Source: Bacteroidia bacterium
GTDB taxonomy: Bacteria > Bacteroidota > Bacteroidia > NS11-12g > UBA9320
Direction of reading: 5' to 3'
DNA length: 64,000 nucleotides
Assembly: GCA_965655315.1 (NCBI GenBank)
Contig: CBFHGJ010000009.1
Coordinates: 26,008-90,007 of the forward strand
Made by a program: the position numbers and the translations under genes. The first letter of the stretch is position 1; every line of letters begins with the position of its first letter. This document shows, in pieces, positions 4,554 to 33,605 of this stretch. The notes under the pieces were generated by a model that was given only the letters and a program-made list of their open reading frames with translations, was not told where the DNA came from and made no database searches.

Positions 4554-5690
4554 CTATTCTTTAATTATTTTGAAAGACTGATGAATATTTCCGTCTAATT
4601 TCACGAAATAAATTCCATCAGATAAATCTTGAATATTTACAACTGATTTTTCTTTTTCAATCTTACCTTCAGATACTTTTTGTCCAGAAATTGATGTGAT
4701 AGCATAACGATTTCCAATAAATTCTGAACCTACACTAATATGAATAACATTTTTAACGGGGTTAGGATAAACTTTAAAATTTTCTATATTATTTTTATTT
4801 ATTATTGATGCTGTTGAACATTCAATTATTCCATTTATGTCATAGCGAGAAACGAATTGCCAAATCTCTGAGCTAGCATCAATTGTCATATTTCCAAAAC
4901 TTCCAGGCCAATCATGTCCTCCTCCTATCACCTTTAATTCTTCCACATAGGCGCAACCTGAGGCAGTTGACCAAGTATATCGCTCTACAGAGGGGCTTAC
5001 AGAAATCATAGTAGCAGTTGTATCACAATTATTGTGCGTTGCCCAGTATCTATGTGTTGCCGCTGCGGAGAGATAATATTCAATTCCGCCAAAGGTAATA
5101 CCATTATATGGAGATGTAAAATCATTAGAGCCAAGTATTGTAAGAACTCCAGTGGGGTGCACCGGAGAGCAAAAACTATTTGGATTGGCTTGCGTGGTTC
5201 TTGCTACTGGAGCTGTAGCTGCAATTCTGCTATTGAGTTTACAAGCAAGCTCAAAGGACATATCACCTCCTAATGAATAACCACAAGCATATATTCTATT
5301 CTGGTCTATTTGGTAATTACTGGCAATCGTATCTATCAATGAACTAAAAAAGGGCACATCATCAAAAGTGCCTGGGACTTTAGTAATCCAGTTTAAAGAG
5401 TTCCCATCGCTTGGATCTGGGCGTGCCTGAGGATAAACAACAATAAAGTTTGCCGTATCAGCGATTGGTCTCATGTCAGATATAGCCTGCCAACTTGCAA
5501 CCCTGTCATTACCTCCATGAAAATTGAAAAGTAATGGAAATTCAGAAGTCCCGTCATAACTGGACGGGATATAGATGCTGTATTCCCGGGTAAGACCATC
5601 AAAGTCAATGGTTTTATTGATAAAAGATTGAGCTGATGAAAGAAATGAATTTAATACAACAAGAGTCAAAACAATGATTTTTATGTTCAT
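4554..5690 (-). CDS. secreted esterase/PHB-depolymerase-family alpha/beta hydrolase with T9SS type-A C-terminal sorting domain
   Basis: 378 aa; signal peptide; GxSxG nucleophile elbow (CGYSLGGDMS); C-terminal ~80 aa (KVYPNPVKNVIHISV...GIYFVKL...KIIKE) matches Por/T9SS CTD. Confidence 0.75.
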   Translation of the reverse strand: MNIKIIVLTLVVLNSFLSSAQSFINKTIDFDGLTREYSIYIPSSYDGTSEFPLLFNFHGGNDRVASWQAISDMRPIADTANFIVVYPQARPDPSDGNSLNWITKVPGTFDDVPFFSSLIDTIASNYQIDQNRIYACGYSLGGDMSFELACKLNSRIAATAPVARTTQANPNSFCSPVHPTGVLTILGSNDFTSPYNGITFGGIEYYLSAAATHRYWATHNNCDTTATMISVSPSVERYTWSTASGCAYVEELKVIGGGHDWPGSFGNMTIDASSEIWQFVSRYDINGIIECSTASIINKNNIENFKVYPNPVKNVIHISVGSEFIGNRYAITSISGQKVSEGKIEKEKSVVNIQDLSDGIYFVKLDGNIHQSFKIIKE

Positions 5691-5745
5691 GATAATTTAA
5701 GGATTTATTTACTTGCATTTCTGAAGTAATATATAAATTCGTATA
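5527..5745. repeat. source copy of segmental duplication (esterase 5' end + divergent promoter), paralogous to 6479-6680
   Basis: About 90% nucleotide identity to 6479-6680 by eye, collinear. Confidence 0.7.
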
Positions 5746-5763
5746 AATTAAAGTATAAAAAAA

Positions 5764-6375
5764 ATGAAAAAAACAATTTTATTATTAATCACAGTATTTG
5801 CTATTTCGTTAGCTAATGCTCAAAACGAAACGAAAGAATTTGCGAATTATTCGGTAGGGGTATCCGTTAGTCCATTTGGTGGATCGTTGGGTTTTGGCTA
5901 CAATCTATCTACAAAAACAACATTTCAAGCCTCAATCGGAGGATTTAAAGGATCTGCACCAATTTCACCCGAATATGGGAATGATGAATACGATGTAGAA
6001 AATTCGTCTTCATGGGTTGGGATGTTTGTAAATCACAGACCATTTGAAGATTCGGATTGGTTCAGGGTAGGAACTGGATTTGGTGTAGGTAAAATACAAA
6101 ACGAACTAACCAATACGAACAATGCAAGTGATGTTTATCATGCCAATTATGAGGGAAATATAGTTGCTTATGTTGGAGTAGGAGTAGGTAGCCGACCAGT
6201 TAAAGGGTTGCAATTTGGATTGGATGTTGGAGTGCTTTCAACAGGTGGAGCAACAGTATTTGCAGACCGAGACAATCTTGCACCCGAAAATGCTGTTCTC
6301 AAAAAAATTGAAGATGATTCATTTTTTGGATCTCTATTACCAAATGTTCAGCTTAACATAAGCTGGGGTTTTTAA
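5764..6375 (+). CDS. outer-membrane beta-barrel protein (small OMP)
   Basis: 203 aa; signal peptide ending ANAQ; Gly/aromatic-rich beta-strand pattern; C-terminal ...ISWGF with terminal Phe typical of OMPs; followed by terminator. Confidence 0.6.
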   Translation: MKKTILLLITVFAISLANAQNETKEFANYSVGVSVSPFGGSLGFGYNLSTKTTFQASIGGFKGSAPISPEYGNDEYDVENSSSWVGMFVNHRPFEDSDWFRVGTGFGVGKIQNELTNTNNASDVYHANYEGNIVAYVGVGVGSRPVKGLQFGLDVGVLSTGGATVFADRDNLAPENAVLKKIEDDSFFGSLLPNVQLNISWGF

Positions 6376-6396
6376 AATTTATTTAAGTTCAAATCA

Positions 6397-6441
6397 GGGC
6401 GGAATCGTGAACTAAAGTTCAATGATTCCGCCTTTTTTTTA
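6397..6441 (+). terminator. rho-independent terminator
   Basis: GGCGGAATC ... GATTCCGCC hairpin followed by T8 run. Confidence 0.8.
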
Positions 6442-6478
6442 TTGTTTTTGCCAATCAATTGGTCAATTCATGTAACTT

Positions 6479-6640
6479 AAAAAATAATGGAAATTCAGAA
6501 GTGCCGTTATAACTAGGCGGAATATAGATGCTATATTCCCGGGTAAGACCATCAAAGTCGATGGTTTTATTGATAAAAGATTGAGCCGAGCAAAGAAACG
6601 AATTCAATACAACAAGAGTCAATACGATGATTTTTTTGCT
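6479..6640 (-). pseudogene. relic of esterase N-terminus (start-less, 3'-truncated paralog fragment of 4554-5690)
   Basis: See repeat 6479-6680; the frame is intact but there is no start codon and the homology ends abruptly. Confidence 0.6.
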
Positions 6641-6680
6641 TGCATTTCTAAAATAGTTTATAAATTCGTGGAAATCAGAT
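6479..6680. repeat. duplicated copy of 5527-5745 (esterase N-terminal coding end + divergent promoter), contains internal ~30 bp deletion removing the esterase start codon
   Basis: Collinear ~90% identity to 5527-5745; minus-strand translation retains esterase residues 7-59 (IVLTLVVLNSFLCSAQSFINKTIDFDGLTREYSIYIPPSYNGTSEFPLFF) but no start and a stop soon after. Confidence 0.75.
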
Positions 6681-6690
6681 TAATTAAACA

Positions 6691-7158
6691 ATGAAAAAAA
6701 TTTTTCCATTACTTCTTTTGTTGACAACGATAATTTATGTTGGATGTTCTGAAGATGATGATTCGCCCGCACCCAAGTCTTCAGAGCAAGCATTTGTTGA
6801 TTATTCTGGGGCTTACCTCGGCACTAGATACGTAAATTATTACTCTACTCAAACAAATTCACTTTTAGATTCAAGCAGTTTCATTGATACTATTTTTGTA
6901 TTTAAGCATAAAATAAATAGTGACAGTTTTTTTACTTGGGGATATTCTGATGAATTTCAGAAGAGTGTTAATTGGGGGAGATTAAATAGTGATGGTTCTT
7001 TTAGGAATACCGGAAGTTGGTATGATGCAAATGCTAATGATTCTTTTACACAACAACATAATCATAGAATTTCAAATGATACGTTTTATGAAGTTATTGA
7101 AACTTTTAGAACAAACTTCCGATGGCATGGTGAGGGGGTATTCATAAAAATGGAGTAA
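6691..7158 (+). CDS. hypothetical lipoprotein
   Basis: 155 aa; signal peptide + lipobox-like LLLLTTIIYVGCSEDDD; preceded by the duplicated promoter segment; followed by terminator. Confidence 0.55.
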   Translation: MKKIFPLLLLLTTIIYVGCSEDDDSPAPKSSEQAFVDYSGAYLGTRYVNYYSTQTNSLLDSSSFIDTIFVFKHKINSDSFFTWGYSDEFQKSVNWGRLNSDGSFRNTGSWYDANANDSFTQQHNHRISNDTFYEVIETFRTNFRWHGEGVFIKME

Positions 7159-7180
7159 GTAAATGACAATATTATAAGAA

Positions 7181-7212
7181 AAGGGGACATTTTAATGTCC
7201 CCTTTTTTTATT
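7181..7212 (+). terminator. rho-independent terminator
   Basis: AAAGGGGACAT tttta ATGTCCCCTTTTTTT hairpin + T-run. Confidence 0.8.
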
Positions 7213-7229
7213 CAATTAGTTGATTGTGC

Positions 7230-7391
7230 TTATTTGATGAGGTATACAGGACCTTTATAATAATGTATGTTTCCTCTAAAATCGAGGGCTTTTATGTGGT
7301 ACAAATAATACCCAGATATTGCGTCTTTACCGTTCTGAGCAAAGACTCGATAGGTTCCATATATATGAGGTATGGAAATTATTTTTAACAT
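7230..7391 (-). pseudogene. remnant of T9SS type-B (gliding-motility-associated) C-terminal sorting domain
   Basis: Minus-strand frame translates ...GTYRVFAQNGKDAISGYYLYHIKALDFRGNIHYYKGPVYLIK*, resembling the conserved tail (IFNRWG..VF..YYYVI...kGtVtLIR) of type-B CTDs; only ~54 codons open, no upstream body. Confidence 0.5.
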
Positions 7392-7563
7392 TTTTGTTTA
7401 TGGAGTTGGCGGACTAATTGTTTTGTATTTTTTTTGGTTAGCCCTAAACTATTTTGGGGAGTGGTTAGAAGATAAAACTAATATGCAATTTTTATTAGGT
7501 TTTGTTCTCATAGGTTTGTTAGCAATTTTTTCATTGAGTTTATACGTTTGGTTAGTATTTTGA
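7372..7563 (+). CDS. hypothetical small membrane protein (two predicted TM helices)
   Basis: 63-aa ORF, ATG start, very hydrophobic; could be spurious. Confidence 0.25.
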   Translation: MEIIFNIFVYGVGGLIVLYFFWLALNYFGEWLEDKTNMQFLLGFVLIGLLAIFSLSLYVWLVF

Positions 7564-7804
7564 TTAATTAGTTAATGAATATAATCTGACGCTTCTTGTC
7601 CAACCAACATCAAACCATAGGGCTATCCCACTATTCTGAGCAAAGGCTATGGAAATGAAACCGATATTCTTAAAGGATAAGGGGGTGTTGAATATGAAAA
7701 ATAGTTCGGATTTTTTTAGGATTTATCTGTAAAACGATACCTAAATCGATACCCTGAGGCATAAAAAAAACCTACAATTATCTGTACAACAGTTAATTAC
7801 AGGT

Positions 7805-7979
7805 TTTAATGGGTAGGCTTGACTTACAATCTAACCAAAAAGTTTGCTATCGATGCAGGTTTTGGTCTCGTGTTTACTGAGGTTACATCGGATATAGCTG
7901 TTGGTTATGATGGAAATGATCGATTTAGAAATAAGAACTTGTTGGGATATTTAGGAGTCTCATACGGTTTTGGGAAGTA
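7805..7979 (+). pseudogene. C-terminal remnant of an outer-membrane beta-barrel protein gene
   Basis: Start-less frame translating VGLTYNLTKKFAIDAGFGLVFTEVTSDIAVGYDGNDRFRNKNLLGYLGVSYGFGK*; typical OMP C-terminal strands; no start codon, no N-terminal part. Confidence 0.45.
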
Positions 7980-8074
7980 ATTATTGCCAATGAAATAATT
8001 TAGAAAAGCTAGTCCTAAACGGCTAGCGTTTTTTATTTGATAATTCTCAGGTAACTAATACCTTCGTCTTCGAT

Positions 8075-9152
8075 ATGACTAGTGATCAGTTTAACGACAT
8101 TAAAGGCCGTACAGCTAAGCTGGCGGACTATCTTTGACGTAGAAAAGAATCTTGCTCTCATAGCAGATGAAGAGCAGCAAACGCACGATCCATCCTTCTG
8201 GGATAATCCAAAAAAAGCAGAAATACATCTCAGGAATATCAAGAAAAAGAAAATCTGGACTGATTCTTGGGTTGAAATCAATGCTGGAGTTGAAGACATA
8301 GAAGTGCTTCTTGAATTTAAAGAAATGGGTGAAGATGTGGATGAGGAAATTGAGACCAAGTATCAAGGTACACTTCAGAAGTTAGAGAACTTGGAATTTA
8401 AAAACATGCTTAGCGGAGAAGAGGATCAATTGGATGCAATTCTGGAAATCAATGCTGGAGCTGGAGGTACTGAGAGTAACGATTGGGCAGCTATGCTGAG
8501 CCGAATGTACACGATGTGGGGTCAGAATAATGGATATAAAGTCGAAGTTCTAGAGCAAGTCGATGGAGACGTTACAGGTATTAAGTCTATTTCCTTACAG
8601 TTTTCAGGAGATTTTGCTTTTGGTTATTTAAAAGGAGATAATGGTGTTCATAGATTGGTCAGAATAAGTCCTTTTGACAGCAGTAACAGGAGACATACGT
8701 CTTTCGCGTCAGCTTATATCTACCCTGTGGTAGATGATAGTATCGAGATTGATATTCCTTGGGGAGATATTGATATGCAGACTTCTCGAAGTGGTGGAGC
8801 AGGAGGTCAGAATGTAAATAAGGTGGAGACCAAAGTTCAGTTAACCCATAAACCGACAGGCATCATGGTGGTATGTTCTCAAGCCCGTTCTCAACTGGCT
8901 AACAAGGAAGAAGCCATGAAGATGCTTAAGTCTCAATTGTATGATATTGAGCTTCGTAAACAAACTGATGCTAGGGCCGAAATAGAAAATGGCAAGATGA
9001 AGATAGAGTGGGGAAGTCAAATAAGAAATTACGTTATGCATCCCTATAAATTGGTTAAGGACGTGCGAACAGGAGAGGAGACAAGTAATGTGCAAGCCGT
9101 GATGGATGGAGATTTAGAAGCTTTTCATAAGGCGTACTTGTTAGGACAGTAA
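8075..9152 (+). CDS. prfB: peptide chain release factor 2, with programmed +1 ribosomal frameshift (join 8075..8134, 8136..9152)
   Basis: ATG 8075 gives [20 protein letters not shown] then UGA; canonical shift site CUU UGA C at 8132-8138; +1 frame continues [15 protein letters not shown]... to TAA 9150-9152 and contains RF2 motifs (SPF-like region, GGQ in [16 protein letters not shown]). Confidence 0.95.
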
Positions 9153-9154
9153 AA

Positions 9155-10648
9155 GTGAAAAGATTTGCATTCGGCTTTATAATCCTTTTGTTGTTTGCTA
9201 TTGAATCTTCAGGACAACATCGCATTAAGCTTAATACAGGTACCTCTTTGTTTGTTGAGATAAATGAATTATCCGATGATTCTGTATGTTTTCGTTTTAT
9301 TAGACAAAAAGGATACAACTGCTTCGCCCGAAATGAAGTAGCTTATATTGAAGATCTGGGATTAGATGTCCACTTATTGAGCCAAAACTATAAACTAAGT
9401 AATCCATTCAAGTTTGAAAATCTCACTTTGGAGGATGAAATACAATTTAACTCCTATCTGAGGCACAATAAGTTAAACTATTATATGTTGCAGACTAAAG
9501 TACTAGAGATAGCTGCAGATAGCGTCCGTTTTCTAACTTTCATCGATGGTAAATACATTGAAAAAAAGATATCTAAAGATAGAATACTGTCTATACAGTA
9601 TTCGCAACGTTCTCGAAAATACTTGTTCCCGTCTGATAGCGTTGATTTAGATTTTGAGGATATTGTTTTCTTGCAAAATGGGGATCAACAAAGAATATAT
9701 GTCTATGAAGTAGGCTTCCAGGGAATTAAGTATGCTAAAGAATTATTACCGCACTACAGCACTAAACTTAAAGACGATAACTCAATAAAAACGATGAATC
9801 TTGCTGGATTAGAATTTCTGCATTACAACCAAATCGATAAATTGTATATAGCAAACGGTAGGATAATATTCCCTCCTAAATTAACAAAGAGCAGCAAAAG
9901 GGAAATATCTCGTTACCCTAGGCTTGTTTTGGGAGTAGAATACGGAGTTGGATCAATTAGGCAAGGTCTTATACAGTTCACTCAGATTGAAACTTTTGGG
10001 GGTGAAATTCAGGAAATTAGCCAAATAAGTACCTTGCCCCAAAGCTCTCAGTACTCTTTTGTAGCTGGGCTTCAATTATCTGACAATCAACGGGTAGAGA
10101 TGAAATATTCGAACTGGGACAGTCAAGAAATAGAGTTTAGTGATAACAGGTATTCAAATAACCCCATAGATTTTTCTGATTTCTATCTGACTAAGTATGG
10201 TACAAAAATGCAGTCCATACAGATTTCATATTACCGTGAATTATACAAGGGTATAATAGGTGGCATTGGTGTAAATAGTGTTTTATTTAACAACGATCTA
10301 CAAATCAAGAGAGCAAGGTATACTGGGACAAACTTTCACTCCGGTTTTTATAATTCTGCAGAGGTTTCGAATAAACCTCAACCTGGAATAGGAGCTAGTT
10401 TAGGATATGAATTAGATTTAGGAAGGTTGAACTTAAGATCACAATCTAGCTACAATGTGTATAGAGCAAATTTGAACCAATATTCTAATGAATCGTACCA
10501 ATACGTTTACCTAAATGATCAAGGAAAAAGAGTCTCTACGAATAGTGGAAGAAAAGTCCGCAATGAGATAGAACAGTATCGATTGGCGTTCATTTCAAAA
10601 GAAATAAGCAGACACATTCTGTCTTTCGAAGCAACACTGCTGTATTAG
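9155..10648 (+). CDS. hypothetical secreted protein (probable outer-membrane beta-barrel C-terminal half)
   Basis: 497 aa, signal peptide MKRFAFGFIILLLFAIESSGQ; Tyr/Gly/Ser/Asn-rich C-terminal half typical of barrels; starts 3 nt after prfB stop. Confidence 0.55.
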   Translation: MKRFAFGFIILLLFAIESSGQHRIKLNTGTSLFVEINELSDDSVCFRFIRQKGYNCFARNEVAYIEDLGLDVHLLSQNYKLSNPFKFENLTLEDEIQFNSYLRHNKLNYYMLQTKVLEIAADSVRFLTFIDGKYIEKKISKDRILSIQYSQRSRKYLFPSDSVDLDFEDIVFLQNGDQQRIYVYEVGFQGIKYAKELLPHYSTKLKDDNSIKTMNLAGLEFLHYNQIDKLYIANGRIIFPPKLTKSSKREISRYPRLVLGVEYGVGSIRQGLIQFTQIETFGGEIQEISQISTLPQSSQYSFVAGLQLSDNQRVEMKYSNWDSQEIEFSDNRYSNNPIDFSDFYLTKYGTKMQSIQISYYRELYKGIIGGIGVNSVLFNNDLQIKRARYTGTNFHSGFYNSAEVSNKPQPGIGASLGYELDLGRLNLRSQSSYNVYRANLNQYSNESYQYVYLNDQGKRVSTNSGRKVRNEIEQYRLAFISKEISRHILSFEATLLY

Positions 10649-10661
10649 TAAGTCTAGTTAA

Positions 10662-11657
10662 CTACTTTACAATCTCCATGAGTTGATCTAACTTAGGCGT
10701 TAGGATAATCTCTATACGTCTATTCTGTGCTCTAGCTTCTTTTGTTTTAGCATCATTTATAGGTACGTATTTACTTCTGCCACTAGGTATAATCTTAATT
10801 GGATCCATTTTTCCTTCGGTGGTTAAGTATCTAACGACTGATGTAGCTCGCAGTACACTCAAATCCCAGTTATCTTGAATAGTAGTAGATTTCATTGGAA
10901 CGTCATCAGTATGCCCTTCTACCATAATATCAAAATCTTCGATGTCTTTAAGGCTCTCAGCCACCTTAAGAAGAGCATTTTTACCTTTCCAATCGATATC
11001 TGTTTTACCACTTTGGAACAAAAGGTTATTGTCTAAGGATACATATATCCTACCATCTTTTTCAACTACTGAAATTCCGCTGTTCTTGTAACCAATCAAA
11101 GATTCAGTAAGTTTATTCTTCAAATCACTGACTGCCTTTTCTTGAGCTGCGAGTTTTGATTTCAGTTCATTTACGGTTTTTTCACGTTCACGCAGTGATA
11201 TTTCTAAAGCATCAAGTTCTTTCTTTAGTTTATTAGTCTCATTCTCTTTTTCTATCAGGGTAGACTCTTTAGCAAATAGCTCACGTTTCTTCTCATCTAG
11301 TTTCTTATCTAACCTTTCAAGTTCATATCTCAGATCCTTTTTTGTGTTTTCATTACTGTTTAACAAGTTTTCATAGTTCTCATTCAGAATTTTGTACGAA
11401 CGTTCTACCTTGTCAAATTCAGCTTTTTGATCAGCACATTCCCTTTCTGCTTGTTCGTATTCTGCAGCAAGGTTTTTGTACCTAGTATTTAGATCTTCTA
11501 GTTCGCTATCACTAAATGACTTTAATCTCTCCATTTCTTGGTACTTACTGGCTAGGTCATCGTATTTAACCTGTAAATCTTCAAGTTTTTTTGCTGGTAC
11601 ACAGCCTACTATCACACTGATCAGAAGGACAGTTATGAGTTTATATTCTTTATTCAT
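10662..11657 (-). CDS. OmpA-family lipoprotein with long N-terminal coiled-coil
   Basis: 331 aa; lipoprotein signal (LISVIVGCVPAKK); 150-aa heptad-rich coiled coil; C-terminal OmpA/MotB peptidoglycan-binding domain (…TDDVPM…LSVLRATSVVRYL…NRRIEIIL). Confidence 0.8.
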   Translation of the reverse strand: MNKEYKLITVLLISVIVGCVPAKKLEDLQVKYDDLASKYQEMERLKSFSDSELEDLNTRYKNLAAEYEQAERECADQKAEFDKVERSYKILNENYENLLNSNENTKKDLRYELERLDKKLDEKKRELFAKESTLIEKENETNKLKKELDALEISLREREKTVNELKSKLAAQEKAVSDLKNKLTESLIGYKNSGISVVEKDGRIYVSLDNNLLFQSGKTDIDWKGKNALLKVAESLKDIEDFDIMVEGHTDDVPMKSTTIQDNWDLSVLRATSVVRYLTTEGKMDPIKIIPSGRSKYVPINDAKTKEARAQNRRIEIILTPKLDQLMEIVK

Positions 11658-11734
11658 CTTGATGTTCTATTTCTAATCATCAAAATTACAACTTGGTCTG
11701 ATGCAGAATATTCACATATACACAGCGTGAAGGA

Positions 11735-11756
11735 ATGTCTATTTATTATTAGACAT
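11735..11756. promoter_or_regulatory. palindrome ATGTCTA-N8-TAGACAT between two minus-strand genes (possible operator or terminator stem)
   Basis: Perfect 7-bp inverted repeat read directly from sequence. Confidence 0.3.
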
Positions 11757-11789
11757 GTTGTTGGTTAGTAAGGGTTTAAAAGTGAAGCT

Positions 11790-12314: not shown

Positions 12315-12341
12315 TTAAACGATTAAAAGTAAGTATCTAAG

Positions 12342-13433: not shown

Positions 13434-13467
13434 TCTTTTACTATTTTTAAAACGCCTTCGTATTCAG

Positions 13468-14529: not shown

Positions 14530-14891
14530 GCTAGTCGTCTATTTAAACGAAAATACAACAGAGTAGTGCATCGAATTTGCGATGTACTTAAAATGTGGGT
14601 TAATCAGGCCTTACTGACTGAAATATCTTTGAGTAGCTTTCTTCCCTTCTTTATACAGGAGTTCTTGTTCTTCTTGAGATAGACTAAAATTAGTGATGGC
14701 AATGCCTTTACTATTAATTATTACCGTAGTTTTTTCCTTTTCTTCTGATTTAAAAAAGTCTACGTCTAGGGAGAAGTGTTGGCTACTAATCAGTTTGGAG
14801 ACATTATGTCGGCAATTGATGGCAACATATTTATGCCCTTATATCAGAAGCAAGGTATGGATGGATTCTTCATTATCAAACCAGTGGAACC

Positions 14892-25670: not shown

Positions 25671-25694
25671 TTATTGTTAAAATTCTATTTAAAA

Positions 25695-26651: not shown

Positions 26652-26655
26652 TAAC

Positions 26656-27363
26656 TTATTCTTTTACCCGAGGAGCTTCTTCATCTAGTTTATCGTTAGA
26701 CTTTAAATAGGTGTTGGGTAGAATTTCCTTGGCGGTGTAAGTCACTTTATAGGTATAATAGTCCAATTCATATTTTAAAAATAATGCCCCATTAGTTTCT
26801 TCTATGAAGTAGTTGAAAAGTTCATCATTTACGTTTGCGTACTTTGACTTATCAATACGTATAGTTTCATCATACCAGTATTTAATTGCTAGAAAGTTAC
26901 CTTTTGCCATTGGATATGGGCTTTCTTGAGCAGCAATTGCTACTTGTTTCAGCTCACGATCTAATAGCTTCAATGATTCGTTTGATGTTCTTAGGTCGTT
27001 TAGTTTTGAATAATTTCGTTTTTCAAGAGAGTGTACATGGAGAGAATCAGAATCGTTGTACTTTTCGAGCACCTCTTTATCTTCTAAATCTATATAGCGG
27101 ATGTCATATCCAACAGTGCTATCTGAACCTTTATACAAGCGTTGAATATCCCCATTTTTATAAATAGTCAAGTGCATTTCATTTCCCAAAACACTCGCTA
27201 GATTACCTTCATATTTTCCTTTTAGTGGTGATTCAACTTCAATATCATAAACAATAGTGCCTCTGAATAATGGAATTTTCTCACCTGAAGGAGTTGTGAA
27301 TTTCTTATTACAACCGATGGATAGTACAGAAACAAGGAATAAGATACTATAGAGATACTTCAT
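26656..27363 (-). CDS. hypothetical lipoprotein
   Basis: 235 aa; signal peptide + Cys (ILFLVSVLSIGCNKK). Confidence 0.5.
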   Translation of the reverse strand: MKYLYSILFLVSVLSIGCNKKFTTPSGEKIPLFRGTIVYDIEVESPLKGKYEGNLASVLGNEMHLTIYKNGDIQRLYKGSDSTVGYDIRYIDLEDKEVLEKYNDSDSLHVHSLEKRNYSKLNDLRTSNESLKLLDRELKQVAIAAQESPYPMAKGNFLAIKYWYDETIRIDKSKYANVNDELFNYFIEETNGALFLKYELDYYTYKVTYTAKEILPNTYLKSNDKLDEEAPRVKE

Positions 27364-27382
27364 AGATTATAAGCAACAATTT

Positions 27383-28255
27383 TTATTCCGCTTTTGACTT
27401 TACAACTATTCTTTTTACTGGCTCAACCAACAACAAGACAATAAAACCAATTACTAGGCCTAAAACTAAATCATTCAATATCGGTGGAATACCATGAACC
27501 AAATCGTGAATAAAATCAATATTATGTCTGAAAATACCTCCAGAGACTAAAAATAGAGCTACTGTACCTACAAATGAGAGTGTTTTAATCACCCAAGGAA
27601 GACCTTTAACTAACAATTTTCCAATTCTCGAGCTGAATTCACTACTGTTAGATTTGATCATTCTATAGCCTAAATCATCCATCCTCACGATAAGAGCAAC
27701 TACTCCATAAACACCAACTGTAGCCAAAATGGCAATGAATGATACTACAAAGATTTGAACCATCATCTCTGCTTCAGTAACTGTACTCAGGGCTATTATT
27801 ATAATTTCAATAGATAGAATAAAATCTACTAATAGAGCCGATTTCACCTTTGTGTTTTCATAAACCTGATAGTCATCCTCATTTAATTCTTCGTGAAGTT
27901 TTTGAACTTGTTTCTTATCGGAATGAAAAAATATGTGATACACCTTGTGGGCACCTTCATAGGCTAAATAGAGACCTCCAAATAGCAGTATTATGGTGAC
28001 TGCTAGTGGCACAAATACACTCAATAGAAAAGCTACAGGTAAAATTATTAGTTTATTGAGAAATGAACCTTTGGTAATTTTCCATAAAACAGGTAGTTCT
28101 CGTTTGTTCAAAAAGCCTGAAGACTTTTCTGCATTTACTGCTAAATCATCACCTAATATTCCAGCGGTCTTTTTAGTGGCAATTTTTGTCATGCTTGCCA
28201 CGTCATCCATGAGTAATACTATGTCGTCAAATAGTGCAAAGAAAGATGATGACAT
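27383..28255 (-). CDS. DUF808 (YedI-like) inner-membrane protein
   Basis: 290 aa; N-terminus MSSSFFALFDDIVLLMDDVASMTKIATKKTAGILGDDLAVNAEK characteristic of the DUF808 family; several TM segments. Confidence 0.6.
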   Translation of the reverse strand: MSSSFFALFDDIVLLMDDVASMTKIATKKTAGILGDDLAVNAEKSSGFLNKRELPVLWKITKGSFLNKLIILPVAFLLSVFVPLAVTIILLFGGLYLAYEGAHKVYHIFFHSDKKQVQKLHEELNEDDYQVYENTKVKSALLVDFILSIEIIIIALSTVTEAEMMVQIFVVSFIAILATVGVYGVVALIVRMDDLGYRMIKSNSSEFSSRIGKLLVKGLPWVIKTLSFVGTVALFLVSGGIFRHNIDFIHDLVHGIPPILNDLVLGLVIGFIVLLLVEPVKRIVVKSKAE

Positions 28256-28316
28256 AATCTGTAGTAATTGGTTTTAGGAAACAAATATAGCCTTAGACTT
28301 AAATCGTTTGGTCAAT

Positions 28317-29756
28317 CTAGCTTTTTGGTGTGTCAGCTAATATTGCTTTTAAAAATTTCCAAAACTTAGCAGTAGAAGCAATACCACATCGTTCATCTGG
28401 GCTATGTGCTCCTTTTATCGTAGGACCGAAACTAATCATATCTAATCCTAGGATACGCTCTCCTAGAAGTCCGCATTCTAATCCTGCGTGGATAGCCATA
28501 ACTTTTGGCTCTTCATCGAAAAGTGATTTATACTTGGCTACTAGGACATCTAAAATAGCTGACTTTGGGTTTGGATTCCAACCTGGATAAGAACCACCGT
28601 GTTCTACCTCACAACCCATAAGGTGGAAAGGTGCGGCCACTGTGTAAGCAACATCATACTTTCCGCTTTCTGAAGAACTTCTTTGTAAACTCTGAGTTTT
28701 GAAAGCCCCATCTTTGATTATAACTCTGGCCAACGAAGAAGAAGTTTCTACCAACCCTTCAATGGTTCTACTATATCGAAATACACCATTGTGACAGGCG
28801 TACAGTGCTTGAGTCACTTTTTTTGAGTCGCTAGTACTCATAGCTGTAGAAGCAGATGCAGCTGATTCAATTCTAATTTCTAAATCACTGTCTTGTACCA
28901 GATATTCTTCTTTTATGTCCTTAGCAAGATTTAAAACGTGATTTAAGTAATCTTCAGTAGCAGTAACTACTGCAAAGCTTTCTCGTGGTATTGCATTTCT
29001 TAAACTACCTCCATTTACCTCCACTATCTGCAGGTTGTATTGCTCCGCTTTATACATCAAGCGATTCATAATCTTGTTTGCATTTCCCAGTTCTTCATTG
29101 ATCTGAACTCCAGAATGTCCTCCATTAAGTCCTTTTACTGATATGCTATAGGTGTTTGAATTAGCAGGAACATCTACACTTTCATAGTCATACGTCGTAT
29201 TTGTGTCTATACCTCCAGCACAACCTATACTGAATTCATCATCATCTTCCGTGTCTAGATTAAGAAGTATAGTCCCATTTAATATACCCATTTCGAGATT
29301 CATCGCACCTGTCATACCAGTCTCTTCGTCTATAGTGAAAAGTGCTTCTATTGCTGGATGAGGTAAATCTGTAGAACTTAATACAGCCATAATAGAAGCT
29401 ACTCCCATACCATTATCTGCACCTAATGTAGTCCCATTTGCTCTCACCCAGTCCCCATCCACGTACATTTCGATACCCTGAGTACTAAAATCAAAATTAG
29501 TGTCCGAATTCTTTTGATGTACCATATCTAGGTGACTCTGAATAATAACAGTTTGTCTATCCTCCATACCTGGTGTGGCTGGTTTTCTAATTATCACATT
29601 GCCAACAGAATCGGTATAAGTCTCTAAATTCAAACTTGCACCAAAATCCTGCATAAAGGCAATAACTTTTTCCTCTTTTTTACTAGGTCTTGGCACTGCA
29701 TTCAAATCAGCAAAATGATTCCATACTGATTTTGGTTCTAGGTCACGTACTTTCAT
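28317..29756 (-). CDS. pepD: aminoacyl-histidine dipeptidase (Xaa-His dipeptidase, M20 family)
   Basis: 479 aa; LEPKSVWNHFADLNAVPRPS...SVGNVIIRK N-terminus and M20 metal-binding His/Asp/Glu pattern (HLDMV, DNGMG, EETG). Confidence 0.85.
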   Translation of the reverse strand: MKVRDLEPKSVWNHFADLNAVPRPSKKEEKVIAFMQDFGASLNLETYTDSVGNVIIRKPATPGMEDRQTVIIQSHLDMVHQKNSDTNFDFSTQGIEMYVDGDWVRANGTTLGADNGMGVASIMAVLSSTDLPHPAIEALFTIDEETGMTGAMNLEMGILNGTILLNLDTEDDDEFSIGCAGGIDTNTTYDYESVDVPANSNTYSISVKGLNGGHSGVQINEELGNANKIMNRLMYKAEQYNLQIVEVNGGSLRNAIPRESFAVVTATEDYLNHVLNLAKDIKEEYLVQDSDLEIRIESAASASTAMSTSDSKKVTQALYACHNGVFRYSRTIEGLVETSSSLARVIIKDGAFKTQSLQRSSSESGKYDVAYTVAAPFHLMGCEVEHGGSYPGWNPNPKSAILDVLVAKYKSLFDEEPKVMAIHAGLECGLLGERILGLDMISFGPTIKGAHSPDERCGIASTAKFWKFLKAILADTPKS

Positions 29757-29856
29757 AGGGCGAAGGTAATAAGAGTACGTTGTTTATCCATCTAAATAGC
29801 AGATTAGTAGCAGTAAGAAAAATGAATTCGTTAAAAAAGCGAACTTTGACCTAGAA

Positions 29857-30477
29857 ATGAGTTTAAACCTTATTCTTTTGATCAGTATAGGAGCAGTCAG
29901 TTATATCAGTTTTTCAAATGCAGAAATGTTTAGAAAGCTGTTATTTAATCCTTATACAATTATTAGAGAAAAACAGTGGTATCGATTTATCTCTAGTGCA
30001 TGGTTACACGGAGATATGATGCATCTTTTTGTAAACCTTTATGTCTTATACAGTTTTGGGAATTACTTAGAAATGGTTACTACAACCTGGTTTGGTGGGG
30101 CAGGATCATTCTATTATTTATTCCTTTTTGTTGGATCGGTAATCATTGGTCATATTCCATCCTACATCAAACATAAAGATAATTACTCCTTTTCTTCTGT
30201 AGGAGCGTCAGGTGGAGTCTCCGGTATTTTGTTCGCTTGTATCCTAGTAAGTCCATTGATGCAATTGAGACTATTCTTTGCTATTCCTATTAACAGTCTA
30301 ATTTTCGGTGTTTTATATCTGGTATATACCTGGTATATGTCTAAAAAAGGAGGTGATAATATCAATCACGATGCACACTTATGGGGTGCACTTGGAGGTA
30401 TGATTTTATTGATAGCAATAAAACCCGTTGTACTAACTAATTTCTTCAGTCAGCTGCTTAATTTTTTGCCAGGTTAG
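29857..30477 (+). CDS. rhomboid-family intramembrane serine protease
   Basis: 206 aa, 6 TM; GxSG motif (GASGGVSGILFA) and catalytic His in AHLWGALGG. Confidence 0.8.
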   Translation: MSLNLILLISIGAVSYISFSNAEMFRKLLFNPYTIIREKQWYRFISSAWLHGDMMHLFVNLYVLYSFGNYLEMVTTTWFGGAGSFYYLFLFVGSVIIGHIPSYIKHKDNYSFSSVGASGGVSGILFACILVSPLMQLRLFFAIPINSLIFGVLYLVYTWYMSKKGGDNINHDAHLWGALGGMILLIAIKPVVLTNFFSQLLNFLPG

Positions 30478-30608
30478 ACTTTTTTGAAGGCGTGAACCGC
30501 ATCAATATCTAACTCAATGTGCCCATCTTTTTGAACGTCAAAGTTTCGGATAAACTGAGCATTTGGCTCTATCTCGTCTGCAGTATATGAAAATCAGATT
30601 CTAATATT

Positions 30609-31391
30609 TTAACCAAAAGTTTCATCGTATCCTTTTAGTAAAATTAGAAACTCTGCTTTTCGCTTTTTTAAATCATCAAGACTATATGAATTTAATGGAC
30701 TGTCTTCCCCAATAGGATGAACAATAGTCCAACTCAATGGAAAGAAAGTAATGTTATTCGTTTCGAAATCTAGATTGTAGAATCTTCTGACAACTTGCTC
30801 ACTTTCATCAGTGTCTAATACTAGTAATAGTCGAGCTTCCATTTCCATAAGAACATTAGGCCTTCGATTTACTACTCTAAACATAAATGCTTCTCCGCCT
30901 TGATAAGGTGAAATTAGAGCATTGTCACTATATACAAGTCTTGCATTTGGCTAACTAAATCGTGTATAGATGACACCCGTAGCTACTGCGAAAAACATCC
31001 AGCCAAGCATAACCTGCATTCCAGAAACAAAATTGGTAGCTTGATCTAGCGGAAAAATACTACCAAACCCAACGGTAGTAAAAGTTTGCATGCTAAAGAA
31101 GAGTGTTTTTAGAAAGGGAGATAAATCAGAAGGATTACCTGCAAAACTTAGATGTTCTGTTCCTAGACTAAGATAAATCAAGGCAAAAAGAACATTAATC
31201 ACTAAATAAGCCCCTAATACCCATAGTAGAAATCCACCCATGGGCATAGTTATAACAGTTTGAAAGCTTTGAATACGAACTCCTTTTCGGCTTACATTAA
31301 AGCTACCATCCTTATTAATAAACCTTTGAGGGTCATGGTCGTATTTTTTACTTAACCCTAAGTCAAACTGATTCTTTCTGTTTCCAGACAA
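30609..31391 (-). pseudogene. KirBac-type inward-rectifier potassium channel interrupted by one in-frame TAG
   Basis: ORFs 30951-31391 (slide helix, TM1, pore helix, filter TTVGFG, TM2) and 30609-30884 (Kir cytoplasmic domain) are in the same frame; the 66 nt between them are open; the sole interruption is TAG (forward CTA 30951-30953) at ...IYTRFS*PNARLVY..., i.e. within the conserved RFSRP-type post-TM2 segment. Confidence 0.65.
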
Positions 31392-31437
31392 GGCTTGTCA
31401 ATTTAAAGATATCCTTTTCAACTAAGGATAGAATAGA

Positions 31438-31815
31438 TTAAAATGGTAAGTCTCCTTCATCATCACTACTGAAAGAAATCCCAGTGATATCACTGTCATC
31501 ACTCGTGTTTGCAGCGGATGAATTGGCGGCTGAAGGAGATGAAGAACCTTCGATTCTCCAAGCTTTGATATCTGTATACCAGCGTGAGTTATATTCTCTA
31601 CTTTCTATATTTATTGATACCTTGAGCTGATCGTTTGGTTGATATTTCTGTATTTCATCAGCCTTTTCATTCCAACAACTCACACATATTTTTTTAGGAT
31701 ATTGATCCGCAGTTTCTAAGATAAAATCCTGTTTCTTCCAAGCACCTCTTGTACTTACACCTTCCTGAACAGGTAGTACCTGCACTAGTTTTCCTTCGAT
31801 TACTAAATTGTCCAT
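31438..31815 (-). CDS. DUF3127-family protein
   Basis: 125 aa; N-terminal MDNLVIEGKLVQVLPVQEGVSTRGAWKKQDFILETADQYPKKICVSCWNEK pattern typical of Bacteroidota DUF3127; Ser/Asp-rich tail. Confidence 0.55.
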   Translation of the reverse strand: MDNLVIEGKLVQVLPVQEGVSTRGAWKKQDFILETADQYPKKICVSCWNEKADEIQKYQPNDQLKVSINIESREYNSRWYTDIKAWRIEGSSSPSAANSSAANTSDDSDITGISFSSDDEGDLPF

Positions 31816-31896
31816 TTTACTTGGTGCAAGTTTAAGTACTTATGTAAGTTTCTAACGTATTTGGATACGAAGATTTTTTAAACAATTTTTGATGCC

Positions 31897-32547
31897 TTGG
31901 AAGTTCTAAAAGCTTTTCTAGTAGCACTAGTCTTTAGTTTCTTAGGTTCAGTTTTTCTGGGGCTTGTAAATGTAGCAGTTATAGAAACTGCAATACGTAA
32001 ATCTAAAAAATCTGCATTGTGGTTAGCTTTTGGTGGTGTTCTTCCAGAAATACCATATACTCTTATTGCCATTTTTGGAACTCAGTATGTGGATATACTT
32101 GAGGGGTATAAAAGCCAAATTGGGATTGCAATAGGAATTGTATTTCTAGTCTTGGGCATTGGATATTTCAAGTCAAAGAGCAATGTAGAGACTGGGAAGC
32201 CAATAGAAACTACTGCCATAAAAAACTTTTCAAAAGGGTTTCTTTTGGCAATAGCGAACCCTCAACTTATCTTTTTCTGGTCTGGATATTTAATTTTATT
32301 TCAAACAGGCACTTTTTCTGGTGGTGAACCTTTTTTTAAATTCTCAATGGGTATAAGTGATTCAGTAAAATGGAGTTTCGCTGCTGGAGCAGTAGCGGGA
32401 GCTTACTTAATACTCTGGATATATGCAATGCTAGGTTCGATTTATAAACAGAAGTTAATTAATGTTATAGGAGATAGATTAGGCAAAGTAATTGGGATAG
32501 TCTTTATAGGTGTCGGTATATTTACGGTTATAAAAAATGCGATTTAA
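31897..32547 (+). CDS. LysE/RhtB-family amino-acid efflux transporter
   Basis: 216 aa (TTG start), 6 TM; N-terminal LysE-type segment …GPVNVAVIETAIRKS…. Confidence 0.55.
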   Translation: MEVLKAFLVALVFSFLGSVFLGLVNVAVIETAIRKSKKSALWLAFGGVLPEIPYTLIAIFGTQYVDILEGYKSQIGIAIGIVFLVLGIGYFKSKSNVETGKPIETTAIKNFSKGFLLAIANPQLIFFWSGYLILFQTGTFSGGEPFFKFSMGISDSVKWSFAAGAVAGAYLILWIYAMLGSIYKQKLINVIGDRLGKVIGIVFIGVGIFTVIKNAI

Positions 32548-33489
32548 ATCATTTCCTGTCCTTGTATTGATTTTAACTATTTCAACTCTTTGTAAGGCAC
32601 AGCTCCCCGCCAAAAAGTTTAAATGGAAACATTTAGGTCCCTTTGAAATGGCTCCTAGTAATGTAGACACTGGAAAGTGGACGGCTGTAGGGCAGGGTTG
32701 GATAGAAGATGTTCTAATCACAGATAAAAAGTGGTTTGCAGGAAGTATTACAGGTGGTTTATACTCGAGTAAGAATGAAGGACGAAAATGGAAGAAAGTT
32801 GATACCGACAGTATTCAAATGGGATCATTATGTTTACTCCAAATAGAAGATACTATCTACAGGGGCACTGGAGTTACCCATTACGGAGAGAGATTTGGAT
32901 TTGGGCTATATTGATCTACTGATTTCGGTAAATCTTGGGAAACTACTGGTTTGACCTTTAATGCAAAAGAGTCTAAGGTAATAAGGGATGTAGAAAATTC
33001 TTCGGACGGAAATACTTTGATGGCTTGTACAGATGAAGAGGTTTTTTAAGCTTGGATGATAGTAGAGCTTGGGAGTCAGTATTATTTAAAGAGAAAGGTA
33101 GTTTTAGAAAGATTCTGTTTCATGAAAATAATCCCCTAGAGGTTTGGCTGGCAGGAAGTGAACTCTATCATAGCTTAAATGGAGGGAAAACTTGGGAAGA
33201 TGTAACCCCACAAATTACGCAAGACTTAAAGGAACGCGAAAAGAAGCTAAGCCGTATTGATATTGCCCAAGATTTAGTTAATGCTAATCGACTTCTGGTG
33301 TTTTATGGACTCAGAAATGGAAGTTGTGTATTAGAGTCGCTAGACGGAGGAAAATCTTGGAGTCAGATACTTTGGGATCTTGACATTAGACGGGCTGATA
33401 TCCATCTCTTCGGCTTTTACATAATCACCTATGGCGAATGCATTTCTGGCTATCTGAATGCTATAAGATGTTTTTTGTTTAGAATTTGA
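32537..33489 (+). pseudogene. BNR/Asp-box repeat protein (sialidase/Ycf48-like beta-propeller) disrupted by in-frame TGA and a frameshift; 3' part missing
   Basis: Signal peptide + Asp-box motifs SxDxGxTW (SKNEGRKWKKV, STDFGKSWETT, SLNGGKTWEDV, SLDGGKSWSQI). In-frame TGA at 32912-32914 sits between GFGLY and STDFGKSW in the same frame. The frame changes at the T6 run 33042-33047. The body ends prematurely at 33489. Confidence 0.6.
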
Positions 33490-33594
33490 GGTCACACTCA
33501 TTTCCGGTAATTGAGCCATACTTGCTAAGGTTGTTAGCAGTATAATCAAGAATAAAAAGGAATGTTTATTCATTATTGGGGTAAAATTCGACAA
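33340..33594 (-). CDS. hypothetical small secreted protein or N-terminal remnant of a truncated gene
   Basis: 84-aa ORF with good signal peptide (MNKHSFLFLIILLTTLASMAQ) directly downstream of the HI0933 gene; overlaps the 3' end of the decayed BNR gene on the other strand. Confidence 0.3.
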   Translation of the reverse strand: MSNFTPIMNKHSFLFLIILLTTLASMAQLPEMSVTSNSKQKTSYSIQIARNAFAIGDYVKAEEMDISPSNVKIPKYLTPRFSSV

Positions 33595-33605
33595 TATATT
33601 TCAAA

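Follow-up and report, generated by a model that had tools for sequence, protein, structure and literature searches.

The window, the whole 64 kb stretch of DNA that was analysed, comes from a metagenome-assembled genome (MAG) with a GC content of 36%. About four of its roughly 57 genes are disrupted and three orphan fragments accompany them, all inside the first 34 kb. No broken gene was found between 35 and 64 kb, where tiling of open reading frames (ORFs) gave no split ORFs and ten ORFs (51.5–62.1 kb) were scanned against Pfam. The window was compared with ten near-identical contigs (98–99.5% DNA identity) that had been assembled independently from marine metagenomes (JGI, ENA, Logan, NCBI), and assembly GCA_900632135.1 supplied one relative contig. 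The near-identical strains originate from coastal seawater metagenomes, such as those of the Gulf of Cadiz shoreline, and are also present in many other metagenome assemblies. The features concerned are:

4001–4552, plus strand: 5' part of a gene for a 209-aa putative beta-barrel protein, cut at 4523/4524 by an insertion and running to a new stop (183 aa)
4524–7813: strain-specific insertion of 3,290 bp
6458–6679, minus strand: duplicated 5' head of an esterase gene, about 58 codons
7233–7397, minus strand: weak candidate for the remains of a T9SS C-terminal sorting domain, resembling the esterase C-terminus by eye
7814–7980, plus strand: orphaned 3' end of the gene for the 209-aa beta-barrel protein
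8075–9152, plus strand: prfB with a programmed +1 frameshift (CTT TGA C at 8132–8138), a control for UGA as a stop read by RF2
21581–22618, plus strand: 345-codon pseudogene, in one frame but with two in-frame stops, whose putative product is an outer-membrane beta-barrel protein with a SPOR-like domain at its C-terminus
21938–21940, plus strand: in-frame TAG, from CAG (Gln)
22289–22291, plus strand: in-frame TGA, replacing CGA (Arg) in the window strain alone
30474–31391, minus strand: pseudogene of a KirBac-type inward-rectifier K+ channel (Kir); 305 codons in frame, TTG start, three nonsense substitutions, no indel
30594–30596, minus strand: in-frame TGA, from CGA (Arg)
30609–30611, minus strand: in-frame TAA, from CAA (Gln)
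30951–30953, minus strand: in-frame TAG (stop 147), from AAG (Lys of a conserved FSKP motif)
32537–33406, plus strand: what is left of the 5' part of a gene for a secreted BNR/sortilin-like protein, about 289 codons out of 654; it contains one nonsense codon and a 1-bp deletion and is truncated at its 3' end
32912–32914, plus strand: in-frame TGA seen in the window strain alone, where it replaces CGA, an Arg codon of the BNR motif YRSTDFGKSW
33042–33047, plus strand: T6 run, a 1-bp deletion from T7 whose frameshift separates two frames of one BNR gene
33397–33406: junction of a 2,641-bp deletion with imperfect microhomology, through which two convergent genes lost their 3' halves
33407–33594, minus strand: orphan 5' head (signal peptide and about 40 codons) of a gene for a 577-aa CarboxypepD_reg/PD40-type envelope protein, left by the same deletion

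The insertion is absent from L096 and L097, where the beta-barrel ORF is unbroken (209 aa, P0182), and both alleles segregate. Within it are an unbroken gene for an esterase with a T9SS tail (4554–5690, minus strand), genes for proteins of 203 and 155 aa, and debris; in L092–L095 the 203-aa gene and the gene downstream of it are found in different genomic surroundings. The first-pass annotation had listed three start-less gene tails in this region. That at 7805–7979 is a true 3' tail, which comparison with L096/L097 assigns to the beta-barrel gene starting at 4001. The sequence at 6479–6640 is instead part of the duplicated esterase head, with start codon and signal peptide present; the repeat (5516–5773 against 6469–6700) is 77.5% identical, and the 6458–6679 peptide matches the esterase N-terminus. 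The third (7230–7391) has the likeness to a T9SS sorting-domain tail, but its peptide gave no significant Pfam match.

The product of the SPOR-like gene shows weak Pfam matches to SPOR and OMP_b-brl. L002 and L003 have unbroken orthologues (411 and 365 aa, respectively), likewise located between the DUF4399 and M16 genes. Among the conspecific strains (9 cluster members), none showed an intact allele. At 21938, CAG is present in L084, L086 and proteins P0121, P0124 and P0125, TAG is common to the window and L085, and L087/L088 have TAA. At 22289 every other strain has CGA, and L087/L088 carry a CAA to TAA change one codon away, at 22286. Further nonsense hits in relatives are AAA to TAA at codon 7 and a stop at Gln269, and four alleles are frameshifted, two by 1-bp deletions at 21751 (L084) and 22464 (L086) and two with shifted C-termini (P0125 and P0123); the P0123 frameshift may equal the 22464 event. 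There are at least four independent first hits among the strains. Beyond the species, the gene is absent from L001, and in L004 it has an independent in-frame TAG that sits two alignment columns from that of the window.

Homologues of the Kir channel are 300–310 aa long, with Pfam domains IRK, Ion_trans_2 and IRK_C, and L085, L086, P0138 and P0143 preserve an unbroken version of 305 aa. Stop 147 recurs in P0133, a non-identical allele from Logan assemblies, and the 91-aa fragment ending at the TAA of 30609–30611 (P0132) is found on 5 contigs from NCBI and Logan. Other strains have GGA to TGA at codon 77, GAA to TAA at codon 167 and CAA to TAA at codon 199, and no Kir indel occurs in any strain compared. 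The window allele carries 16 private changes (1.75% vs. 0.19% elsewhere), exceeding the prediction from flanking synonymous divergence, so its history is not simply clock-like.

The BNR product matches Sortilin-Vps10 and BNR in Pfam, and intact 654-aa alleles exist in conspecific strains (P0198 and P0201). Relatives with intact alleles, as well as L085–L089, have T7 at 33042–33047, and the intact relatives read EEVFLSLDDSR across this site; T6 is found in the window and in L081–L083 (three Logan runs). A further 1-bp deletion occurs in relatives at 32726. The 2,641 bp are kept in L085 and L086 and are missing from the window, L081–L083 and L087–L089. The BNR lesions are nested by sharing, the large deletion being the most widespread, followed by the T-run deletion and then the window-private TGA. 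In L085/L086 the convergent 577-aa gene has four clustered in-frame stops. The sister species L098 has Kir, BNR (an orthologue of 672 aa) and the 577-aa gene all intact and in the same order.

All four in-frame stops and the homopolymer frameshift first reported for this region are present; two more Kir stops (30609–30611 and 30594–30596), the 2,641-bp BNR deletion and the 3,290-bp insertion splitting a fourth gene had been overlooked. Decay had been described as dominated by nonsense, which is correct in that nonsense is the most numerous lesion, but two loci are strain-variable indel sites and not cases of point-mutation decay. At the six window stops, relatives (98–99.5% DNA identity) have CAG, CGA, AAG, CAA, CGA and CGA. 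The suggested origin by C-to-T change thus fits CAG to TAG at 21938, CGA to TGA at 22289, 30596 and 32912, and CAA to TAA at 30611, but not 30953, where AAG became TAG by an A-to-T transversion, and TGG, also proposed as a source codon, gave rise to none of them. Among 53 window-private substitutions, 26 are C to T, and GC to AT changes outnumber the reverse (30 vs. 12).

The comparison of dN/dS called for by the first-pass annotation gave neutral-like values for broken genes (Kir, 0.7–1.0; SPOR-like, about 1 for the window vs. L087) and normal constraint for 15 intact neighbours (0.07–0.21). Synonymous changes make up 17 of the 61 segregating sites in Kir plus the SPOR-like gene (28%) and 179/267 (67%) in intact genes. 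Across the population dS is a mosaic, ranging from 0 to 0.17, which indicates recombination. About one neutral disabling hit per kb per lineage is expected since the strains diverged. Nonsense changes account for 6/30 segregating sites in Kir, against a neutral expectation of 4–6% (P 0.001–0.009), and for 11/76 when pooled, against 5–7% (P 0.002–0.02, or 0.03–0.16 once one discovery hit per gene is subtracted). The nonsense excess, the indel-free Kir gene and the non-clock-like window Kir allele count against simple neutral loss.

The proposal that these lesions represent real, recent gene decay is borne out by the sense codons of near-identical relatives, and by strains that break the same genes elsewhere or keep intact alleles. 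The decaying genes are accessory. One of the five, Kir, encodes an ion channel; the products of the other four are putatively secreted or located in the envelope, and their N-termini resemble signal peptides. Very probably, the broken genes are real, segregating pseudogenes of dispensable, mostly envelope genes, undergoing ordinary loss in a free-living, recombining marine population. Four genes (SPOR-like beta-barrel, KirBac-type K+ channel, BNR/sortilin-like and small beta-barrel) would be at differing stages of natural loss, and of a fifth, for the 577-aa envelope protein, the window retains no more than the 5' head. Selection on them may have been relaxed or reversed species-wide, in which case each strain lineage would gather its own disabling mutations, and a GC-to-AT biased spectrum, converting CAA, CAG and CGA to TAA, TAG and TGA, would make nonsense the most numerous lesion. 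Structural changes (the 1-bp deletion in the T7 run, the 2.6-kb microhomology deletion and the 3.3-kb insertion) add to the loss, and homologous recombination would shuffle intact and broken alleles between strains. Relaxed rather than positive selection probably drives the loss, and the products of the broken genes are presumably no longer made.

An altered genetic code is rejected. In agreement with the first reading, UGA and UAG are genuine terminators and codon reassignment is unlikely: prfB (whose L096 orthologue has Pfam domains PCRF and RF-1) keeps its CTT-TGA-C shift site, of the 62 tiled ORFs, 22 terminate in TAG, and each window stop corresponds to an ordinary sense codon in relatives. 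Recoding, whereby the stops are read through or reassigned (by suppressor tRNA, selenocysteine, pyrrolysine or partial reassignment) and the genes still function, might draw on the frames that remain open beyond each stop, on the rarity of TGA as a terminator (8/62 ORFs) and on the nearby TAG of the L004 orthologue. It is nevertheless extremely improbable, since the ancestral codons differ (Gln, Arg and Lys) and persist in conspecific strains, so that no site is a conserved recoding signal, and since dN/dS is about 1 and frameshifts and deletions strike the same genes. No internal stop occurs in the 15 intact genes in any strain compared, and neither a suppressor tRNA nor a matching Rfam element is present in the window. 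Reassignment is known for UGA to Trp in Mycoplasma, UGA to Gly in Gracilibacteria/SR1, and in recoded phages; the window shares with these its in-frame TGA and TAG within otherwise open frames, and differs in having RF2 with a UGA-dependent frameshift, TAG and TGA closing ordinary genes, stops that replace three different amino acids, and conserved genes free of internal stops. We give equally little credence to a sequencing, assembly or consensus artefact, in which the stops and the homopolymer frameshift would be errors or a chimeric population consensus. The window is from a MAG, one lesion lies in a homopolymer, and four of the six stops (22289, 30611, 30596 and 32912) occur only in sequence from the window's own strain. 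The idea of a systematic artefact fails on the recurrence of lesions in independent assemblies and other samples, namely the T6 run in three Logan assemblies, the 2.6-kb deletion in ENA and Logan contigs, TAG 21938 in JGI and ENA contigs and stop 147 in the different allele P0133, together with alternative lesions in the same genes. NCBI and Logan both list fragment proteins that end at private stops, window positions 1–8475 (about 8.5 kb) are matched at 100% identity by L091, which Logan assembled from another run, and the broken genes have the excess of missense changes seen in real pseudogenes.

Erosion of a host-restricted or bottlenecked lineage, with selection weakened genome-wide and pseudogenes accumulating, was the other earlier suggestion, and is improbable. 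The most closely related complete genome is a MAG, and its isolate name, NCC532, hints at a culture collection; locally, about 7% of roughly 57 genes are disrupted, a higher share than is typical of free-living bacteria. A review of parallel pseudogene formation within bacterial species tabulates roughly 2–2.6% for broad-host Salmonella and 10–36% for host-restricted bacteria (PMC11078800), between which the window falls; for a sample of 64 kb, this density exceeds chance only modestly. Against erosion, intact genes have dN/dS of 0.07–0.21, neither a broken housekeeping gene nor an IS element was found in the 64 kb, the strains are from coastal seawater and many other metagenome assemblies, and a recombining population still holding intact alleles does not fit a clonal bottleneck. 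Adaptive loss, in which knock-outs are positively selected, is somewhat unlikely but the most credible alternative. It could reflect escape from phages or grazers that exploit envelope proteins, or the shedding of membrane proteins that are costly or toxic, in which case later stops would have been selected for silencing truncated products that do harm. Compatible with it are the predominance of envelope and secreted proteins, the repeated first hits and lack of intact alleles in the SPOR-like gene, the fate of that gene in L004 and L001, and the two strain-variable indel sites, and the mild nonsense excess in Kir may leave room for it. However, most of what is seen is explained by the neutral expectation, correction for gene-discovery bias leaves the nonsense excess marginal, multiple stops per haplotype cannot each have been selected and their order is not consistently upstream, and intact Kir and BNR alleles persist.

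Polymorphic pseudogenes are a known phenomenon. Kuo and Ochman (2010) reportedly described pseudogenes as short-lived and removed by deletion; the present case is a 64-kb sample, and shares young, strain-specific pseudogenes and, in BNR, lesions nested from a point change up to a large deletion. Rodriguez-Valera and colleagues are said to have proposed a phage-predation 'constant diversity' model, with flexible or hypervariable genomic islets for surface structures in marine bacteria. The insertion (4524–7813) and the deletion (junction 33397–33406) likewise affect envelope or secreted proteins, and the small-gene cassette occurs in differing contexts across related genomes; unlike such islets they are small (2.6–3.3 kb) and without glycosyltransferase, O-antigen or integrase genes. 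Parallel or convergent pseudogene formation occurs within bacterial species, for example in Salmonella Typhi and Paratyphi A and in the loss of antivirulence genes by Shigella. Those pathogens are host-restricted, whereas this population is uncultured, recombining, free-living and marine, with intact alleles co-circulating and neighbouring genes under no general relaxation of selection. Common to both are the independent disabling of the same genes by different lesions in close lineages, a mix of nonsense, frameshift, deletion and insertion, and a dN/dS near 1 in the broken genes.

The window is Bacteroidota sequence with a GC content of 36%. Species-representative genomes (L001–L004) are too distant for codon-level comparison, and their synteny with the window is limited to 16.7–25.6 kb; in the best of them, CP121331 (L004, the closest complete genome), the M16 peptidase protein is 80% identical. 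No record was found for the M16 peptidase or DUF4399 when their exact protein sequences were looked up. Near-identical strains, present in independent metagenome assemblies, were reached by protein searches and exact look-ups, and are listed below. The runs ERR4674117 and ERR4674142, which both hold the strain, are Gulf of Cadiz shoreline seawater metagenomes (PMC12574857).

Contigs of related strains compared with the window
L081–L083, Logan, three runs: 99.1–99.5% identity to window 26950–38283, gap-free
L084, NCBI GCA_900632135.1: 98.1% identity
L085 and L086, two JGI metagenomes: 98.1–99.1% identity
L087 and L088, ENA: 98.1–99.1% identity
L089 and L090, Logan: 98.1–99.1% identity
L091, Logan: 100% identity over window 1–8475
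L096 and L097: span window 1–15917

The first-pass annotation described dense gene decay between 5500 and 33600, an observation that is essentially correct and in fact understated. All of the point lesions it listed are present at the coordinates it gave, and at each stop codon of the window a sense codon is found in at least one close relative.

Genes of the window interrupted by nonsense codons, with the codon changes
21581–22618, plus strand, SPOR-like gene for a putative outer-membrane beta-barrel: CAG to TAG at 21938, CGA to TGA at 22289
30474–31391, minus strand, predicted K+ channel gene (Kir): AAG to TAG at 30953, CAA to TAA at 30611, CGA to TGA at 30596
32537–33406, plus strand, BNR/sortilin-like gene (BNR): CGA to TGA at 32912

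The proposal that such stops are C-to-T products holds for five of the six, which are C-to-T transitions; the other is an A-to-T transversion, and none arose from TGG, one of the source codons proposed. Substitutions private to the window strain (53 in the 20.4 kb compared) are 49% C-to-T, with an approximately fourfold GC-to-AT bias per site. By count, decay is indeed dominated by nonsense changes: there are six of them, and the remaining lesions are a 1-bp deletion, a 2.6-kb deletion and a 3.3-kb insertion. Even so, structural events probably came first in disabling two of the four disrupted genes. Two other origins for the stops were considered and rejected. The TGA at 32912 overlaps GATC, and an error at a methylation motif might be supposed, but the other stops lie outside such a motif and the polymorphisms recur in independent assemblies. 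A deaminase-toxin signature would require a consistent context, and at the five C-to-T stops the mutated C is preceded by A, A, T, C and T, respectively.

In the SPOR-like gene, a single gene of 345 codons, TAG 21938–21940 and TGA 22289–22291 lie in the same reading frame. L085 shares the TAG with the window, and in L087/L088 this codon has since drifted to TAA; these two strains also carry a CAA to TAA change at 22286, the codon adjoining the window TGA. Both L084 and L086 have AAA to TAA at codon 7, and each has lost 1 bp as well, at 21751 in L084 and at 22464 in L086; among related protein alleles there is a stop at Gln269 (P0124, P0127) or a frameshifted C-terminus (P0125, P0123). No intact allele was found among the nine cluster members, and intact orthologues are limited to other species (L002 and L003). 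One in-frame TAG likewise interrupts the orthologue in CP121331 (L004 8729–9913; TAG at 9149), and in L001 the gene is absent, the gap between DUF4399 and M16 being only ~115 bp (L001 5019–5134). The gene seems to have been repeatedly lost across the family. The TAG of L004 lies two alignment columns from 21938, but a conserved recoding site was rejected: conspecific strains have CAG, the L004 and window proteins are only ~16% identical and so cannot be aligned reliably, and the TAG of L004 must have arisen on its own.

The TAG at 30951–30953 breaks a minus-strand inward-rectifier K+ channel gene. Alignment to full-length homologues (~305 aa) showed that the frame runs beyond its apparent end, with two more in-frame stops that the first reading had missed (TAA 30609–30611 and TGA 30594–30596); the window keeps all 305 codons in frame, free of indels but interrupted by three nonsense codons. 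The intact allele P0131 matches the Pfam domains IRK_C (1.1e-20), Ion_trans_2 (5.9e-10) and IRK (1.3e-05), the homologues number 2,289, and the predicted product, with a pore, a cytoplasmic domain and a length of ~300 aa, is a KirBac-type inward-rectifier K+ channel. The gene is intact (305 aa) in L085, L086 and the alleles P0138 and P0143. Stops are found at codons 77 and 167 in L087–L090, at 167 and 199 in L081/L082, and in the window at 147, 261 and 266. Stop 147 also occurs in P0133, a different Kir allele, and no Kir indel occurs in any strain compared. Within the 20.4 kb compared, 16 of the 53 window-private substitutions fall in this allele, a concentration suggesting that it is an older pseudogene allele transferred through recombination. 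The Kir start (31389–31391) is TTG in every conspecific strain, otherwise-intact copies included, and ATG in the sister species L098; decay may thus have followed a weakening of the start. A LysE-family gene (31897–32547), flanked by the Kir and BNR pseudogenes, is intact in all strains, with two synonymous versus nine missense segregating sites and with dN greater than dS for the window–L085 pair, and may also be under relaxed or diversifying selection.

BNR is interrupted by TGA 32912–32914 and by a T6 run (33042–33047) that is T7 in L085–L089 and the intact alleles, which read EEVFLSLDDSR. A third lesion, overlooked in the first-pass annotation, is a 2,641-bp deletion with imperfect microhomology at its junction (33397–33406). 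It removed the 3' 365 codons of BNR and most of a convergent 577-aa gene for a CarboxypepD_reg/PD40-type envelope protein, the head of which is left at ~33407–33594 on the minus strand. Intact BNR alleles are 654 aa (P0198 and P0201), and in L098, which has the same gene order, Kir (310 aa), BNR (672 aa) and the 577-aa gene are all intact. The 2.6-kb deletion occurs alone in L087–L089, with the T-run frameshift in L081–L083, and with both the frameshift and the TGA in the window, a nested decay series; L085/L086 carry another 1-bp deletion, at 32726. The 577-aa gene of L085 (5232–6800) and L086 (109–1677) has four in-frame stops within ~40 codons, a cluster that may be explained by two compensating indels with a few codons out of frame between them.

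Among the three start-less tails described at the 4–8 kb locus, 7805–7979 is a true 3' tail. It is the end of a 209-aa beta-barrel gene that starts at 4001 on the plus strand and is split by a 3,290-bp insertion (4524–7813) absent from L096/L097; an intact allele (P0182) and insertion-split 183-aa alleles both exist. The segment 6479–6640 is instead the duplicated 5' head of an esterase gene (4554–5690, minus strand), within a direct repeat (5516–5773 versus 6469–6700; 258 bp, 77.5% identical) that holds the divergent promoter region and the first ~58 esterase codons, one copy being intact and the other an orphan head. The third, 7230–7391, only resembles a T9SS sorting-domain tail. Pfam gave nothing significant for the short orphan fragments, and their identities come from DNA comparison with other strains. 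The insertion holds a 203-aa gene and then a 155-aa gene. In related genomes (L092–L095) the 203-aa gene and a 207-aa downstream neighbor are found in quite different contexts, beside a Gp49/HTH_3 toxin-antitoxin-like pair (L092, L094 and L095) or DUF4419 (L093), which gives the impression of a small cassette, mobile or recombining, that lacks an integrase.

Values of dN/dS were obtained from Nei-Gojobori counts, with 15 intact genes summed as reference. They were 0.07–0.21 for the intact genes, 0.7–1.0 (0.72–0.98) for Kir, ~1 for the SPOR-like gene (window versus L087) and 0.2–0.6 for BNR (pairs with enough differences), the last two on small counts; this comparison, proposed in the first-pass annotation, indicates relaxed constraint in the broken genes relative to their neighbors. 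Segregating sites comprise 7 synonymous, 17 missense and 6 nonsense in Kir, 10, 17 and 4 in the SPOR-like gene, and 179 synonymous versus 88 missense in the intact genes, so that synonymous sites make up 28% in Kir and the SPOR-like gene together versus 67% in the intact genes. Since dS is mosaic, ranging from 0 to 0.17 between adjacent genes of the same strain pair, homologous recombination must be frequent. The dS peaks lie in 26656–28255 (0.17 for a 235-aa gene, window versus L085; 0.15 for DUF808, window versus L087) and adjoin genes with dS of 0–0.01; these patches look like recombination tracts from diverged lineages.

Could the broken genes remain functional through stop-codon reassignment or read-through? 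The earlier judgment that reassignment is unlikely was borne out. The prfB gene (8075–9152) is intact, and its 20-codon ORF0 leads to a CTT TGA C site (8132–8138), the classical, autoregulatory programmed +1 frameshift; prfA lies outside the window. Of 62 tiled ORFs, 32 end in TAA, 22 in TAG and 8 in TGA, with ddl and the M16 peptidase gene ending in TAG as reported, so both TAG and TGA are real terminators. TGA is thus rare window-wide and TAG unusually common, and four of the eight TGA-ended ORFs are pseudogene fragments. Relatives have sense codons at the window stops, the ancestral amino acids are heterogeneous (Gln, Arg and Lys), and dN/dS in the broken genes is neutral. No internal stop was found in the 15 intact genes of any strain compared. 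The 64 kb contain neither a suppressor tRNA (ARAGORN gave tRNA-Arg(ACG), tRNA-His and tRNA-Arg(TCG) only) nor a recoding RNA element (Rfam matches were tRNAs only). Taken together, these results from the window and its relatives make reassignment or read-through very improbable. A systematic sequencing or assembly artefact, one of two causes suggested initially, is excluded: lesions are common to independent assemblies, NCBI and Logan both have records of the window fragment proteins, and missense changes are in surplus in the broken genes. The other suggested cause, erosion in a host-associated or bottlenecked lineage, finds no support. Neighboring genes are under normal constraint, intact alleles are still present, the population is recombining rather than clonal, and neither an IS element nor a broken housekeeping gene was found in the 64 kb. 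The claim of an unusually high density stands in part. Approximately four disrupted genes and three orphan fragments among ~57 genes (~7%), all within 4–34 kb, exceed the ~2–2.6% pseudogene share of broad-host Salmonella and stay below the 10–36% in Rickettsia, Neisseria meningitidis or Mycobacterium leprae (PMC11078800). The excess in this 64-kb sample is only modest, however, because ~1 (2% baseline) to ~3 (5%) disrupted genes would be expected in 57, and it is due in part to two strain-variable indel sites.

With intact homologues in close relatives, disrupted frames, relaxed constraint and lesions seen in independent assemblies, the broken genes are best read as real pseudogenes of dispensable genes, mostly for envelope proteins, segregating in a marine population that recombines and is probably free-living. 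Parallel gene loss and pseudogenes that are young and strain-specific are well known, and the result is mainly a clean negative: a cluster of stops in a metagenome-assembled genome that resembled artefact or symbiont-style erosion is ordinary segregating gene loss. Comparison with near-identical metagenomic strains can polarize every lesion and tell real pseudogenes from errors without reads. That the losses are adaptive, positive selection having repeatedly inactivated envelope proteins and a K+ channel in a wild marine Bacteroidia population, for example in phage evasion or the silencing of costly membrane proteins, strikes us as unlikely. It would fit the several independent loss-of-function alleles per gene, the lack of an intact SPOR-like allele in the cluster, the envelope or secreted proteins putatively encoded by four of the five decaying genes, and the concentration of window-private substitutions in the window Kir allele. 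Nonsense changes make up 6 of 30 segregating sites in Kir, against 4–6% under a neutral model (P 0.001–0.009), a share three to five times the neutral expectation in a gene free of indels. With genes pooled, the count is 11 of 76 (P 0.002–0.02), but the excess weakens to P 0.03–0.16 when one discovery hit per gene is removed. Should the mild nonsense excess and the envelope bias extend to the whole genome, this uncultured marine species would lend itself well, as a natural system, to the study of adaptive gene loss.

Other coding lesions among the strains are confined to a 1-bp insertion near the rhomboid start (L085), start-codon changes and a fusion of DUF808 to the next gene in L087/L088, where a 1-bp deletion at 27369 accompanies a polymorphic DUF808 end stop (27383–27385, TAA or TTA) and gives a fusion ORF of 517–532 aa. 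Several other end stops vary. That of the M20 peptidase (28317–28319) is TAG or AAG, giving 479 or 485 aa, that of the 235-aa gene (26656–26658) is TAA or TAG by strain, and the true prfB stop is TAA in the window versus AAA in L096/L097, where the protein is 2 aa longer. Between two minus-strand genes, 14530–14891 is a 362-bp stretch without a convincing ORF, matched by an uncalled gap of equal length in L096/L097. Relative to the same two contigs, lysS (10644) has lost 6 bp at the 3' end (497 versus 499 aa), and the 174-aa gene at 11790–12314 (minus strand) starts with ATG (12312–12314) in the window and has lost its start codon in L096/L097, which carry ATA.
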